Shown here: in pieces, positions 2,724 through 33,509 of the stretch | Layout: the number at the start of each line of letters is the position of its first letter | Position numbering within the stretch: position 1 is the first letter of the stretch | Assembly (NCBI GenBank): GCA_016432365.1 | Contig: CP066686.1 | Span: 757,992-791,500 of the forward strand | DNA: 33,509 bases | Source: Candidatus Woesebacteria bacterium | GTDB taxonomy: Bacteria > Patescibacteriota > Microgenomatia > UBA8517 | Direction: 5' to 3' | Made by a program: the position numbers and the translations under genes | Notes under the pieces: model-generated | Databases searched by the model: none | What the model was told of the DNA's origin: nothing | The model's input: only the letters and a program-made list of their open reading frames with translations

Positions 2724-3167
2724 ATGACTGAAAACAGTAATGATCTGACACAATTTGCCCAAGAAAATTGGATGCTTAGCTCCCATGACAAAGCACAGAA
2801 AATTTTGTCACACCCAGATCCTTTGTCGGCAATGTTTGCAATTCAGTTAGATATCGGTACTACTGGGTTACCGAGGCCAGATAGGTTCAGAATTCTGGGG
2901 GGCCCTGAACTCGCAGCTGCAGTTTCGATGTCCTCAAGAGAAGACCAGTATGAAACTATTATGTTCGCCGCTAAACAAGCAGTTGATCAAATTAAGGCTT
3001 TAATGCCTACAGAAAGTGCCGAAAAGTTATTAGTTGATAAGGAACATTATTTAGATATTTATAGCGCGTTCGAATTCGCCGTCAAGGCAAGATACAAAGA
3101 AGAGGCGTGGACCAACATATTGGGTGATGGGGAATTACGAAGCGTATTTGAAAAGCACGCCAGGTGA
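2724..3167 (+). CDS. Hypothetical protein (no recognisable domain)
   Basis: It is a 147-aa ORF (GTG 2721 or ATG 2724) with protein-like composition. I recognise no family signature. Confidence 0.45.
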   Translation: MTENSNDLTQFAQENWMLSSHDKAQKILSHPDPLSAMFAIQLDIGTTGLPRPDRFRILGGPELAAAVSMSSREDQYETIMFAAKQAVDQIKALMPTESAEKLLVDKEHYLDIYSAFEFAVKARYKEEAWTNILGDGELRSVFEKHAR

Positions 3168-3380
3168 ATTGACACACTGTTACCTAAAGAATTTAATTTA
3201 CTTCCAGAAAAAATCATAACAGCTATTCTATTTAGGTTTATTTTGGGGTATATTATAATAAGAAATAGGCAATAAAATGAAAAACGATTCCATCCACTTA
3301 CACAAAAGGCATAACAACTCACTCGAAAGCTTATTGTACTTGGCCATACCAATCTTAGTTTTTGTTGCAGTAATCTTAAT

Positions 3381-11307: not shown

Positions 11308-11937
11308 ATGACAGACAGCAAAAAGAAAGGCCAGAAATTAATTACCAAGCAAAACATTCTCGAATCCTTAAAAGATTTGGGCGGGGGAGCTATGAGTCAG
11401 TCTGGTGATCTTCTAAAATCCACTTCGGAAGACTTTTTCAGAGAGTTAATGGGCATTGGTAGCGCTCAGGTAAAAAGATCCGGCGAAATCGGTCCGGGGG
11501 AATCTCTGCAAATGAGCGAGGTGTTAAACGGCAAAGAGGAAGAGAACAAAAAACTCCGGGCTCAAATCAGTTTGGAGAGACAGATGTCAAATGAAGAAAT
11601 GAGACTGTCTCAGGACAAATCAAATCAATTAAAAGTCCAGCTACAGGCTTTAACACAAGAAGTTGTAAAAGTGGCCCAGAGTACGGGAAATTTAGCTGAA
11701 GCAACTCAGGTCGCTATGATTCAAGCACCTGCTTCACCCGGAGTTTACCATTTAATATTTTTTGAGAAAGTTTTGGAATTTTTACAATCATTTAGAGCTA
11801 AAATTGATAACGCTGCAACATGGCTTCAAAGCTCCAACAAAAGAGCACAAAAGAAAAATTATTGGAGCATGTACAAAAAGAAAGGAAGCTCGTTCCTTCT
11901 TTCCCCAGATCACTATCTGCAAAGATCGGCGGGTTAG
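11308..11937 (+). CDS. Hypothetical coiled-coil protein
   Basis: It starts at ATG 11308 (MTDSKKKGQ...) and has a central heptad-like KLRAQISLERQ...LKVQLQALTQEV segment. I recognise no family. Confidence 0.45.
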   Translation: MTDSKKKGQKLITKQNILESLKDLGGGAMSQSGDLLKSTSEDFFRELMGIGSAQVKRSGEIGPGESLQMSEVLNGKEEENKKLRAQISLERQMSNEEMRLSQDKSNQLKVQLQALTQEVVKVAQSTGNLAEATQVAMIQAPASPGVYHLIFFEKVLEFLQSFRAKIDNAATWLQSSNKRAQKKNYWSMYKKKGSSFLLSPDHYLQRSAG

Positions 11938-30468: not shown

Positions 30469-30540
30469 GGCGCGTCCGCCTAAGTGGTAGGGCACCGGTC
30501 TGTAAAATCGGGATAACGGGTTCAACTCCCGTACGCGCCA
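30469..30540 (+). tRNA. tRNA-Tyr (anticodon GTA) with a short (4-nt) variable region
   Basis: The acceptor is GGCGCGT/ACGCGCC and the D-arm is GCCT-AAGTGGTA-GGGC. The anticodon stem CCGGT/ATCGG carries loop CTGTAAA. The variable region is GATA, the T-arm is ACGGG-TTCAACT-CCCGT and the discriminator is A. A TTGACT/TACACT promoter-like pair lies at 30377-30405. Confidence 0.8.
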
Positions 30541-30554
30541 CGTTTAACTTAATT

Positions 30555-30624
30555 ATGAGGGGCTAGGGTAACTAGAAAAAAAACAATTTTTTTCTACTTA
30601 TTCCAATGCCCCTCGTACTTTTTT
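30555..30624 (+). terminator. Terminator-like compound hairpin after tRNA-Tyr
   Basis: ATGAGGGGC (30555-63) pairs with GCCCCTCGT (30608-16). An inner A10/T10 hairpin lies between them, and ACTTTTTT follows. Confidence 0.5.
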
Positions 30625-30634
30625 AAAAACCCTC

Positions 30635-30663
30635 TTGACAAAGATGCGGCCTGGTCGTATATT
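30635..30663 (+). promoter_or_regulatory. Sigma70-like promoter of the T-box operon
   Basis: TTGACA lies at 30635-30640 and TATATT at 30658-30663 with an exact 17-nt spacer. Confidence 0.6.
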
Positions 30664-30680
30664 CTACAACAGTAGCAAAA

Positions 30681-30949
30681 GCTGTGAAGCAGCGAAGTAG
30701 TTAGTTTAGGCGGAAGAATAGAGACGAGGCGGTCGGTGCAAGACCTCGCAAGCTCAAATTAACGAATTACCCTGCAGAGCCGGTTAGACGAAATCTAACA
30801 CGAGAGCGCCCGTAAAAGCGCAAAGAAAGTGTCATCCTGAGCACAGTTGAAGGAAGGAGCTTTCGAAAGAGTATAAAGCGAGGTGGTACCGCCTTTTAAA
30901 GGCCCTTGCCTAGTTCTGATTTTTATCGGAACTATGCAAGGGCTTTTTT
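30681..30949 (+). promoter_or_regulatory. T-box riboswitch leader (Stem I, antiterminator and terminator)
   Basis: - K-turn: 30681-88 with 30776-80 (GC stem, UGU bulge, tandem GA/AG).
- S-turn: AGUA 30696-99 with GAA 30764-66.
- AG bulge AGAGA at 30720-24; distal loop GGUGCAA at 30735-41.
- T-box: GCGAGG-UGGUACC-GCC at 30878-93, closed by GGC-CCUUGC at 30901-09.
- Terminator: GCCCUUGC (30902-09) with GCAAGGGC (30936-43), then U6 (30944-49). Confidence 0.85.
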
Positions 30950-30962
30950 GTATCTAAAAAAA

Positions 30963-33329
30963 ATGAAAGAAACTATTAATCAAAAAGTAGAATCAATACA
31001 CGAAGAGGTGAGACGACGTGATATAGAAAAATTTACTCGCACTATGGTCAGCCTCGTAGCAAAAGTGAATGTTTTCGGTAGCGATGAAAATGATGAATTT
31101 AAGGTGGTTAGGGAAAATGGTTTAACCCAAGGCATATTCAAGACTTGGGCAGTACCTGTTATCCCATTTTTAGAAAGCGGAAGTATTGAAGAATTAGCGT
31201 CAAGTCTAACAAAAGGTGGGCCGTTTTGGGAAAGGCTGGACAACCGACAGTTAAATATTATTACAGACTGGTCAAAAGAACTGTCCTCAAAACCATTAAA
31301 ATTATGGCAAAGCCTTGAAAAATGGAGAGGTTTTGCTGAAACATACGACAGGAGACTGCAATTAATTTTTTCCGAAAGAGAATTACCCACTCAAAAAGAT
31401 GAACGTGCTGCCGAACTTATCCTACGCTTGATAACAGCCTTTGGGTTCGCATCACCTTTTTACCACATTGAAGCAATGGTGGGTGACACACAAAATACAA
31501 GATTGAACCCCATCTCAGCTACTAAAAATAATACTGAAAGGAGTGGGGGTGGTTTGGATTTAGTAGCTATGTCGTTGCCTTCCGCTCTTAAAAACAAGGT
31601 CGTCGCAAAAAAACTTGACTGGTCCGGCTTAAATTGGGAAAAAATAGACAATCGATCAAAAATTGATTCCAAAGATAAGGAATCTATCTTAACCTTTAGA
31701 ATAGCCAAAATTTTGGGTGTAGATATAGGCGATGTTATCTTCGCGGCTAACGCACTCCAATGGATACCTGTAAGTGTGGGGGGCAAGGCAGAAGACTTGC
31801 CACATGATGATGCTCGAATTCTAGTCGAAAATTCACTTAAACCTAATAAAAATACCAACACTGAAACTGTTGGCCGAAACATGAATGCACTTATTAGATT
31901 TTTGAATTGGTTCCCGTTGGTCAAAAATAGTAAAAATTTTTCTGGTAAAGAGTGGAGATACGCTGCAGCATGTGACACATCAGATACTCTGTTGGCAGAA
32001 GTCAACGCAGGAGGAGTCTTGTCCAAATCTTTTGAATTAACGTTTAAACAAGATCTAGCAACACAAGTTAAACAATTGGACGCAACTTCTGCTAAAGGAA
32101 GATTTCTGATCCAACTTTTAAACGATGGAAAACTAAACACAGAAATTTACCAGGAAGTTAAAGCGAGATCGCCAGAATTTTTTAAAGATGTTTCGTCTAA
32201 ACTGGCTGCGCTCGAAAAAAGTGAGGCGGTCCTGGATGTTAACCAAGCAAAACCAAGGCATCTTGTGGGTGGAAAGTCCGCAGGTCTCCGCGAAGCAGGC
32301 TTAATTTTTGGAAAAGAGAATGTTATTCCCGGAATAGTTATTACATCCGAAACTGTAGAAAACTGGCTTAAAACATTACCCAATATATGGACAGAAATAC
32401 AAAATATTAATTCAGCAAAAAATATTTCAGAAAAATTAACCATAGCACATAAAATTTCTGAACTTCTCAGAAAAACTGAGTTTCCTATAAATAATTTCCT
32501 AGATAGCTCTTCATTTTTTAGATCAAGGCTTGCAGTGAGATCTTCATCGTTTGATGAAGACACTGATTACAATGGTTCAGCTGCAGGAATTTACGAAAGT
32601 GAAGTTAACATAGACCCTGCAGAAGTTAAAAGCGCAATCTCACGTGTAATCTCATCATTTTTTTCCGACAAAGCGATAAGTTACAGACATATGCAAGGTT
32701 TGAGCGACATCCCAATGTTTGCAGTAGTTATAAGTCCTTTTGTCGAAGGTCGTGGGGGTGCAGCATTTTCTTCTGGAGATAATAATGGTTGGGAAATCGT
32801 TACAGCGGATAAACCTTCAGATGTGGTTGGGTCGTCATCAGAAAAATTTGATTCATACAAAAAAATTGGTCAGTCAGTTAACAAGGTTAACAACCATGGG
32901 TGGGTAAAAGATTCTCAAGTAAATAAAATTGGCGAGATGTTAATTAAAGCTGAAAAAATAATTGGTGGTCGAGTTGATATGGAGTTTGCGATCGACTCAA
33001 ATGACAAAGTCTGGGTGCTTCAACTCCGAACCATAAAAGAAGAGATGGCGAAAATAGACCATCAAAAGCATAAGCCGCTTTTTGCTCTAAAACTAAACAA
33101 ATTGGAAGATTTAGAAAAAACTGTAGTTGATGCAAACAAAAATATTAAATTAATTATCGGAGAAAATATTAATATTGATCAATTTCAGGGAACGTTATTT
33201 AGATGGTTGACCATAAACCACAACCACGTGGGTCAAATATCGTTGTCTCAAAGAATACCCAGAACCAGTCATTTTGCAAATCTTTGTATTAACCTGGGTA
33301 TTGATTTATTATTTGAAGAACATGGATAA
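30963..33329 (+). CDS. PEP-utilizing/dikinase-like protein: unassigned ~430-aa N-terminal region, PPDK_N ATP-grasp, and swivel phospho-His domain
   Basis: ATG 30963 is preferred because the tracked TTG 30906 lies inside the T-box terminator. The ATP-grasp carries LVGGKSAGL (nt 32262-32288), VRSSSFDEDTDYNGSAAGIYES and DMEFAIDSNDKVWVLQLRTI. The C-terminus PRTSHFANLCINLGIDLLF matches the PEP-utilizer mobile domain, with the His codon at 33270-33272. Confidence 0.8.
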   Translation: MKETINQKVESIHEEVRRRDIEKFTRTMVSLVAKVNVFGSDENDEFKVVRENGLTQGIFKTWAVPVIPFLESGSIEELASSLTKGGPFWERLDNRQLNIITDWSKELSSKPLKLWQSLEKWRGFAETYDRRLQLIFSERELPTQKDERAAELILRLITAFGFASPFYHIEAMVGDTQNTRLNPISATKNNTERSGGGLDLVAMSLPSALKNKVVAKKLDWSGLNWEKIDNRSKIDSKDKESILTFRIAKILGVDIGDVIFAANALQWIPVSVGGKAEDLPHDDARILVENSLKPNKNTNTETVGRNMNALIRFLNWFPLVKNSKNFSGKEWRYAAACDTSDTLLAEVNAGGVLSKSFELTFKQDLATQVKQLDATSAKGRFLIQLLNDGKLNTEIYQEVKARSPEFFKDVSSKLAALEKSEAVLDVNQAKPRHLVGGKSAGLREAGLIFGKENVIPGIVITSETVENWLKTLPNIWTEIQNINSAKNISEKLTIAHKISELLRKTEFPINNFLDSSSFFRSRLAVRSSSFDEDTDYNGSAAGIYESEVNIDPAEVKSAISRVISSFFSDKAISYRHMQGLSDIPMFAVVISPFVEGRGGAAFSSGDNNGWEIVTADKPSDVVGSSSEKFDSYKKIGQSVNKVNNHGWVKDSQVNKIGEMLIKAEKIIGGRVDMEFAIDSNDKVWVLQLRTIKEEMAKIDHQKHKPLFALKLNKLEDLEKTVVDANKNIKLIIGENINIDQFQGTLFRWLTINHNHVGQISLSQRIPRTSHFANLCINLGIDLLFEEHG

Positions 33330-33509
33330 CAGACGACAATCGCTCCTAAGTCAAATGAAAAAAGATGCTATCAAATTAGATTGGGACGTGGCCTTTCAAG
33401 GAAAAGCTAATGGCAACCGACATCTTTTTCGTGTAAATAAAATTATTAGATATCTAGTTACAAAAGAGGGGGGTGACCCATTTATAGCACAATCTGGGGG
33501 CTGGATTCA
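33322..33509 (+). CDS. HD-domain phosphohydrolase-like protein; the 3' end runs off the window
   Basis: It is absent from the ORF track. ATG 33322 overlaps the upstream stop (ATGGATAA). The translation MDNRRQSLLSQMKKDAIKLDWDVAFQGKANGNRHLFRVNKIIRYLVTKEGGDPFIAQSGGWI shows the H...RV...(D)...HD-type N-terminal pattern. Confidence 0.55.
   Translation, partial: MDNRRQSLLSQMKKDAIKLDWDVAFQGKANGNRHLFRVNKIIRYLVTKEGGDPFIAQSGGWI

Follow-up and report, generated by a model that had tools for sequence, protein, structure and literature searches.

A T-box predicted to read tRNA-Tyr suggests a link with tyrosine for a rare enzyme family of the Candidate Phyla Radiation

Which tRNA does a T-box riboswitch read when the genes behind it belong to no familiar amino-acid pathway, and what does the answer say about those genes? 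It is well known that T-boxes can govern, in place of synthetases, genes for amino-acid biosynthesis or for transporters (PMC2494555; TBDB, PMC7778990), and the gated function can be guessed from the specifier. The same guess can be made for a leader at positions 30635-30962 of a 33,509-nt stretch of DNA, referred to below as the window, from a Candidatus Woesebacteria bacterium (assembly GCA_016432365.1, contig CP066686.1), but here the gated proteins fall outside the characterised biosynthetic and transport families. A sequence-only reading had called this leader a transcriptional T-box in front of a dikinase-like protein and an HD hydrolase, and had left its specifier open to Leu, Tyr or Ile, with a lean toward tRNA-Tyr. 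We hold with high confidence that the element is a genuine, conserved class-I transcriptional T-box specific for tRNA-Tyr(GUA).

The leader and the two genes that it precedes are made up as follows; all of the sequence elements that had been named in the sequence-only reading were found in their places.

30635-30663, forward strand: sigma-70-type promoter, TTGACA-17 nt-TATATT (consensus scan, 11/12 matches)
30681-30780, forward strand: Stem I as a whole (Rfam alignment, covariation)
30681-30682 with 30779-30780, forward strand: base pairs of Stem I, with the K-turn/GA motif GCUGUGAAGCAG...CUGCAGAGC
30689-30692 with 30772-30775, 30700-30707 with 30756-30763, and 30725-30729 with 30744-30748, forward strand: Stem I helices (Rfam alignment, covariation)
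30764-30771, forward strand: 3′ side of the specifier loop, GAAUUACC, with AGUA as the 5′ side
30768-30770, forward strand: predicted specifier UAC (Tyr), from the TBDB +0 frame, conservation and complementarity to the anticodon GUA
30720-30724, forward strand: AG bulge, AGAGA (near-invariant alignment columns)
30735-30741, forward strand: GGUGCAA, within the distal loop (near-invariant alignment columns)
30783-30799, forward strand: Stem II, a short hairpin, GUUAGA/UCUAAC (Rfam alignment, compensatory changes)
30800-30821, forward strand: Stem IIA hairpin ACGAG/CCCGU (30800-30813; one A-C mismatch, 30803/30810), F-box-like CCGUAA, and GCGC (30818-30821)
30800-30813 with 30818-30821, forward strand: IIA/B pseudoknot between the hairpin loop and GCGC (own-versus-cross complementarity)
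30825-30864, forward strand: helix GAAAG/CUUUC around UGUCA...GGAG, in the linker/Stem III region (100% paired in 24 leaders)
30878-30909, forward strand: antiterminator, GCGAGG (30878-30883) with CCUUGC (30904-30909), and the 7-nt bulge UGGUACC (30884-30890)
30902-30943, forward strand: intrinsic terminator with a GC-rich outer helix of 8 bp and an inner helix of 10 bp, followed by U6 (30944-30949) (fold, covariation)
30963-33329, forward strand: PPDK_N-like gene, 788 aa (Pfam PF01326, E 1.3e-27)
33355-33509, forward strand: 5′ part of the second gated gene, encoding an HD-domain protein of 238 aa, complete at L062 3031-3747 (Pfam HD, E 1e-5)

Some details of the earlier description had to be amended. 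The antiterminator, said to be perfect, has one G-U pair inside it; the terminator, given as 8+6 bp, has an inner helix of 10 bp instead of 6; and the 3′ side of the specifier loop, thought to be one nucleotide longer than usual, has the 8 nt of the Rfam consensus (GAAauuca).

The U6 run ends 13 nt ahead of the ATG at 30963. Terminator and antiterminator share 30902-30909 and are thus mutually exclusive. For the 3′ domain the predicted fold is the terminator, with an energy of -39.6 kcal/mol and a z-score of -7.6; folded in isolation, the antiterminator has an energy of -11.7 kcal/mol and reproduces the 7-nt bulge exactly. This difference is the energetic asymmetry required of a T-box. By complementarity, the UGGU of the bulge could pair with the tRNA 3′ end, ACCA. 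TTGACA sites resembling the promoter of the window also precede many of the homologous leaders described below.

With permissive filters and in E-value mode, the Rfam T-box model RF00230 aligned to the leader over model positions 1-219, scoring 82 bits (E 3.7e-18). A default Rfam scan of the window returned five tRNAs only and no T-box. The leaders of relatives scored 78-100.6 bits against the same model, and an Rfam T-box was present upstream of the gene in 6 of 12 genome loci (83-100.6 bits), the leader of locus L002, at 100.6 bits, standing above the curated gathering score of 93. As judged from the Rfam alignment, the window copy falls short of that score because its Stem II is short, Stem IIA has the A-C mismatch, a long linker stays unaligned and a discrete Stem III is lacking. 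The match is nonetheless significant and full-length and, together with the covarying antiterminator and terminator, it bears out the call of a transcriptional T-box.

Relatives of the 788-aa protein were retrieved by an alignment-based scan, a single-protein scan of genome contigs having yielded none, and 61 encoding loci were fetched. One of these, L062, is the same contig as the window, with L062 coordinates equal to window coordinates minus 30324. An nhmmer search with a hidden Markov model (HMM) built from seven leaders found leaders upstream of the same gene in 37 loci (28 non-redundant) from Patescibacteria, or Candidate Phyla Radiation (CPR) bacteria. We aligned 24 of the leaders using MAFFT and mapped the helices of the window onto them, with structure counts mapped by hand; partners slid by 1-3 columns and 500 shuffles served as controls. 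Standard pairs occupied 89.7% of cells, against 30-46% in the slid controls, and two-sided, compensatory changes were observed in 35 of 45 pairs; none of the 500 shuffles reached the observed values.

The covariation extended through the whole leader. Pairing was 99% in the distal helix of Stem I (compensatory changes in 5/5 pairs) and in its lower helix, and 99-100%, with compensatory changes, in the helices that flank the specifier loop. All five of the Stem II pairs tested showed compensatory changes, with 68% of cells paired on the MAFFT alignment, and Stem IIA was 89% paired. For the IIA/B pseudoknot, each leader's own complementarity averaged 3.9 bp compared with 2.9 bp for cross-pairings, a result matched in 0 of 5000 permutations. 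The helix at 30825-30829/30860-30864 was paired in every leader, with compensatory changes in 5/5 pairs. In the switch itself, the lower helix of the antiterminator was 94% paired and the terminator conformer 89.2% paired, with 97% in the outer helix and 81% in the inner helix, where 8 of 10 pairs had compensatory changes; the antiterminator/terminator pair is thus conserved and covarying in relatives. Among the unpaired motifs, UGA, AGUA and GGUGGUA (which includes UGGU) were invariant in the 24 leaders, GAA was present in 23, and AGAGA and GGUGNAA were near-invariant.

The set also contains departures from this plan. In L015 (~3250-3300) and L026 (~3142-3200), the specifier loop is kept and the platform of AG bulge and distal loop is lost. 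In L031 and L065, Stem I is cut down to a hairpin with the specifier in its terminal loop and the terminator is retained, a short Stem I that resembles those of actinobacterial translational T-boxes; the L065 leader scored 25.8 bits in Rfam. At 9560-10001 of L065, the ultrashort-Stem-I T-box and its terminator are followed by a tRNA-Tyr gene and then by the PPDK_N-like gene, so that this riboswitch appears, from the order of the genes, to gate the gene of its own ligand along with the operon. Ahead of the T-box sequence, within the Stem III/linker region, many relatives carry a terminator-like, GC-rich hairpin with a U6-7 run (e.g., L001 ~3290-3330, L017, L003, L039, L050 and L052; columns ~300-345 of alignment A2). 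This insertion is missing from the window copy.

In TBDB, the bulge that holds the specifier is numbered from its 3′ end in the 5′ direction, and nucleotides 2-4 make up the primary (+0) frame (PMC7778990). In the window, where GAAUUACC is followed by CUGC, this frame gives UAC. According to TBDB, UAC accounts for 99% of Tyr specifiers and UUA for 1% of Leu specifiers. The +0 triplet was UAC in 20 of the 24 leaders, with variable bases on either side of it: U or A between GAA and UAC, and C or A after UAC. L052, L050 and L029 read GAAAUACC, by which both UUA and AUU are destroyed (becoming AUA and AAU) and UAC is kept; in L065 and L031 the terminal loop ends in AAUACA, followed by CCCC, and holds UAC plus a purine without UUA or AUU. 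One extra C in L049 shifts UAC to the -1 frame. Taken together, the +0 frame, the count of 20 leaders, the GAAAUACC variants and those with a short Stem I closed the three-way ambiguity in favour of UAC.

Besides the gene in the window, tRNA-Tyr(GUA) genes were found no more than a few kb from the family in eight other loci (L001, L014/L063, L026, L054, L065, L042 and L046). Those whose variable arm is given are as follows.

30469-30541, forward strand: tRNA-Tyr(GUA) gene of the window, short arm, predicted ligand (ARAGORN, Rfam tRNA model, alignment with related tRNA-Tyr)
L001 1351-1421; L014 2620-2691; L026 1571-1644; L054 2967-3039: short-arm tRNA-Tyr(GUA)
L042 6579-6666; L046 3071-3156: long-arm tRNA-Tyr(GUA), 86-88 nt, at distant leaderless loci

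The gene in the window lies 94 nt upstream of the promoter and has A73, a short class-I-like variable region and no encoded CCA. The U of UGGU matches this A73, in agreement with the discriminator A that the bulge had been taken to predict. Bacterial tRNA-Tyr normally has a long variable arm; the tRNA-Tyr(GUA) genes beside T-box loci have G1-C72 and A73, are 71-74 nt in length and are without a long variable arm. Diversity of TyrRS and tRNA-Tyr in the CPR has been reported previously (PMC5370408). The tRNA-Tyr gene is separated from the promoter of the T-box by a long imperfect hairpin (GAGGGGC...GCCCCUC) with a U-run, at 30557-30625, which is probably the terminator of the tRNA transcript.

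Is the T-box then unconnected with a synthetase? The impression of a non-synthetase operon, which is correct for the two genes directly gated here, arose because the window stops inside the second gene, 155 nt into the HD frame; tyrS is on the same contig and, in many relatives, comes directly after the HD gene. The order in L062 is the PPDK_N-like gene, the HD gene, a spacer of 148 nt, a group-II pyridoxal phosphate (PLP) decarboxylase (512 aa), an M20 hydrolase (400 aa), tyrS (421 aa; TIGR00234, 286 bits versus a cut-off of 114) and a GNAT-like open reading frame (ORF). When the decarboxylase, M20 and HD proteins were compared with NCBIfam, all matches were far under the equivalog cut-offs, the best for the decarboxylase being PanP and MfnA.

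TyrRS genes accompany the PPDK_N-like family almost everywhere that enough flanking sequence is available. The tyrS gene directly follows an HD-like or metallo-beta-lactamase (MBL) gene on the P0015 contig and in L002, L005/L064, L015, L031, L033/L035 and L065, and follows the decarboxylase and M20 genes in L062 and L063. L010 and L003 also have a TyrRS gene downstream: in L010 it follows the decarboxylase gene, in L003 a stretch of ~1.5 kb that matched none of the queries, and M20 was matched in neither locus. EamA transporters and a second TyrRS paralogue often occur close by. Two paralogues in one cluster were observed in L063 (14410-15675 and 16780-17946), in L064 (6270-7487 and 13954-15177) and on the P0015 contig, one of each pair with a clear S4/SYY C-terminal domain and the other with weak C-terminal domain matches. 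By gene content, tRNA-Tyr, PPDK_N-like, HD, PLP decarboxylase, M20, TyrRS paralogue(s) and EamA genes constitute a conserved candidate tyrosine cluster of Patescibacteria.

The spacer in front of the decarboxylase gene in L062 contains signals of its own.

L062 3752-3780: promoter-like site TTGACA-17-TAATAT, after the HD gene, ~600 nt past the 3′ end of the window
L062, between the TAATAT site and the hairpin: 14-codon ORF, MLNSEYYYLSKDNA (YYY leader)
L062 3837-3865: 8-bp GC-rich hairpin with a U7 run

The same layout was found ahead of the decarboxylase gene in at least 10 other loci (examples are L063 ~11395-11510, L001, L002, L004, L010, L015, L023, L024 and L025). The leader peptides, encoded with 2-4 Tyr codons in a row, include MNSCYYYHLSNLNV, MTTGYYYYFSPSF, MINSYYYFIGSI and MNYYYMVDILV; the ORF stops right against the stem of the terminator, and the terminator-like hairpins carry U7-9 runs. 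As a control, among 952 random small ORFs in these loci, YY occurred in 31 and YYY in 7. Rfam assigned the spacer before the decarboxylase gene to no known family. From its layout, the element looks like a tyrosine leader-peptide attenuator.

Leaders of this second type also occur before the PPDK_N-like gene itself. In loci without a T-box, ORFs with runs of Tyr codons (YYY to YYYYYY), accompanied by terminators, lie within 300 nt upstream of that gene.

L007: ...QTYYYLL...
L008: ...NTYYYYLL...
L009: ...KNYYYQ...
L045: ...NSYYYYYYD...
L046, L047 and L042: ...AYYYYS...
L055: ...GCYYYYYYF...

When the folds of the L008, L007 and L062 leaders were compared, that of L008 showed near-isoenergetic alternatives of the kind found in classical attenuators. 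These peptides, present in relatives that have no T-box, provide independent corroboration of the Tyr reading of the T-box. Judged from its leaders, the PPDK_N-like family is wired to the status of tRNA-Tyr in the lineages examined, either by a T-box or by a Tyr leader peptide.

Certain observations weigh against a tRNA-Tyr T-box of this kind. The score of 82 bits lies below the gathering score. A discrete Stem III hairpin abutting the antiterminator, present in most relatives, is absent from the window copy, L013 and L014. At the position 3′ of the specifier (30771), where T-boxes usually have a purine, the window has C, as do 17 of the 24 leaders; the remaining 7 have A. Finally, in L002, L004 and L005 a one-nucleotide insertion changes the loop to GAAUUAACC (columns 115-123 of A2), so that the +0 triplet becomes AAC and UAC is lost; these leaders nonetheless sit between two TyrRS genes. 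Could the T-box instead read tRNA-Leu(UAA), through the UUA after the S-turn GAA, or tRNA-Ile(GAU), through AUU? Each of these triplets is present in 25 of the 28 leaders, and the A after AUU would restore the conserved purine. Since the tRNAs for Leu, Ile and Tyr all typically have A73, UGGU does not discriminate among them. What decides the matter is the comparison of loci: UUA and AUU are lacking both from the leaders reading GAAAUACC and from those of L065/L031, the +0 frame gives UAC, UUA being the specifier of only 1% of Leu T-boxes, and no linkage to LeuRS or IleRS was seen at the loci, where linkage to tyrS, tRNA-Tyr and Tyr leader peptides is pervasive. The Leu (UUA) and Ile (AUU) readings were rejected on these comparative grounds and appear to us very improbable. 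We think it hardly credible, too, that the leader is a decaying relic without regulation. Its sub-threshold score, its pyrimidine after the specifier, the A-C mismatch at 30803/30810, and a Stem III and part of Stem I that are marked non-canonical, with the Stem III columns of Rfam falling on non-pairing sequence in the window, would all fit decay. Against this, the key motifs are invariant or nearly so across the 24 leaders, the compact architecture of the window copy recurs in L013 and L014, its closest relatives, compensatory changes occur in almost every helix, and the antiterminator/terminator overlap is intact and energetically poised. The covarying helix at 30825-30829/30860-30864, 13 nt upstream of the antiterminator, may substitute for Stem III.

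A different question is how far a T-box transcript reaches. It could span the whole cluster, in which case the element would amount to a T-box for tyrS, with four other genes lying between them, and the hairpin that follows the HD gene would attenuate only in part. All of the genes from the one at 30963 through tyrS point the same way and lie close together, the 148-nt spacer being the sole exception; in relatives such as L002, L015, L031, L033, L064, L065 and the P0015 contig, the operon led by a T-box has tyrS immediately behind the HD or MBL gene. Opposed to this is the spacer, with its own TTGACA-17-TAATAT site, YYY ORF and hairpin plus U7, an arrangement conserved in at least 11 loci; it argues that the block downstream is a separate unit, regulated on its own, and that most transcripts from upstream are terminated. 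We therefore consider a single transcript unlikely at this locus. The organization suggests, rather, two distinct units at this locus, PPDK_N-like plus HD behind the T-box and decarboxylase-M20-tyrS behind the spacer, each predicted to sense tyrosine by itself.

How would a T-box specific for tRNA-Tyr work at this locus? From the architecture of the leader we infer both the binding of the tRNA and the direction of regulation. Transcription would start from the promoter at 30635-30663, and Stem I would capture tRNA-Tyr, with UAC (30768-30770) contacting the anticodon and the AG-bulge/distal-loop platform contacting the elbow. An uncharged tRNA would pair through its 3′ ACCA with UGGU and stabilize the weak antiterminator (30878-30909), allowing RNA polymerase to read into the PPDK_N-like and HD genes. 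With a charged tRNA, the far more stable terminator (30902-30949) would be expected to form, stopping transcription 13 nt before the ATG.

What, then, is the first protein that the switch would control? Its 788 residues fall into the following parts.

Residues 1-~425: all-helical N-terminal domain
Residues ~430-695: PPDK_N ATP-grasp domain
C-terminal ~90 residues: small alpha/beta domain with a TSHFAN motif

AlphaFold modelled the protein with a pLDDT of 88 overall and 94 for residues 1-428 (window 30963-32246). In a fold search with the whole protein, only the ATP-grasp part found matches, to rifampin phosphotransferase (RPH) and phosphoenolpyruvate (PEP) synthase, with a Foldseek E of 2.5e-11 to 5hv1 and a profile E of 2.4e-27 to 5hv6. 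The N-terminal 428 residues, which include many invariant polar and aromatic residues, had no fold relative when searched with Foldseek against the PDB (best E 0.69). The C-terminal TSH..N motif (H770, N773) is near-invariant and reminiscent of a phosphohistidine swivel domain; a Pfam search with the last 100 residues at E ≤ 1 gave no PEP-utilizers (PF00391) match, and neither a PEP/pyruvate-binding TIM barrel nor an RPH-type rifampin-binding domain is present in the protein. Thus, of the earlier description as dikinase-like, the PPDK_N ATP-grasp domain stands and the dikinase label is not established. The family counts 83-84 members; an exhaustive search of 1.84 billion representative clusters placed it in 83 of them, almost all with the same architecture of ~780 aa, and its hosts are metagenome-assembled genomes of Patescibacteria/CPR, including Woesebacteria, Collierbacteria, Roizmanbacteria and Gracilibacteria.

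As a riboswitch the element is textbook, and adds a member to a known class rather than a mechanism. It has the same order of Stem I, Stem II, Stem IIA/B and antiterminator/terminator as the Bacillus subtilis tyrS T-box (the founding T-box, with specifier UAC, in RF00230), the same UAC specifier and the same logic of UGGU and A73. It differs in its CPR host, its sub-gathering score, the C after the specifier, the lack of a discrete Stem III, a tRNA-Tyr without a long variable arm, and a first gated gene that encodes an orphan ATP-grasp protein. At the level of the cluster, the nearest analogue is the tyramine (TDC) cluster of Enterococcus and Lactobacillus, in which a T-box-regulated tyrS paralogue lies beside a PLP tyrosine decarboxylase and a transporter (PMC3315439). 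Common to the two are a leader responsive to tyrosine, an additional TyrRS gene, a PLP decarboxylase of group II and a gene for a transporter; unlike the TDC cluster, the present one has the T-box before the PPDK_N-like and HD genes, a decarboxylase with its own Tyr leader peptide, and added M20 and HD genes. The putative tyrosine attenuators resemble those of trpL, pheL and hisL, with a short ORF containing tandem codons and an intrinsic terminator upstream of genes for the metabolism of that amino acid, but here the codons are for tyrosine, the hosts are CPR bacteria and, in the leaders before the decarboxylase gene, the stop codon directly adjoins the stem of the terminator. The 788-aa protein, for its part, shares the PPDK_N-type ATP-grasp domain with rifampin phosphotransferase and PEP synthase/PPDK, and its helical accessory domain and small C-terminal domain are reminiscent of the three-part plan of RPH. 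Unlike RPH or PEP synthase, it has its helical domain at the N terminus, without a relative in the PDB, and has no PEP/pyruvate TIM barrel.

A text search of the literature returned no paper pairing T-boxes with the CPR or Patescibacteria, and the T-boxes of these bacteria constitute an annotation gap, lying just under the Rfam cut-off and hence being missed by routine annotation. The family also offers a natural case of regulatory replacement, in which a T-box and ribosome-mediated attenuation interchange before the same gene, and the two devices coexist within one cluster as well. The specifier, together with the alternative Tyr leader peptides, provides a rare regulatory clue to an orphan family whose N-terminal domain has no known fold. 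By its predicted specificity, the T-box points to a tyrosine-linked role for this rare CPR enzyme family: the PPDK_N-like protein would be wanted when tRNA-Tyr is uncharged, which makes its biochemistry testable with tyrosine-related substrates.

We suggest tentatively, as a possibility that falls somewhat short of even odds, that the PPDK_N-like/HD pair is a previously unrecognised tyrosine-starvation response module of Patescibacteria, consisting of an ATP-dependent phosphotransferase with a new substrate-binding fold and a phosphohydrolase. If so, the pair might supply tyrosine from an unusual precursor, or it might protect the synthesis of tyrosyl-tRNA, for example by modification of a TyrRS inhibitor in the way that rifampin phosphotransferase modifies rifampin. 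The wiring to tRNA-Tyr in every lineage examined, and the adjacency of tRNA-Tyr and tyrS genes, would then show how important the module is to these biosynthetically minimal cells.

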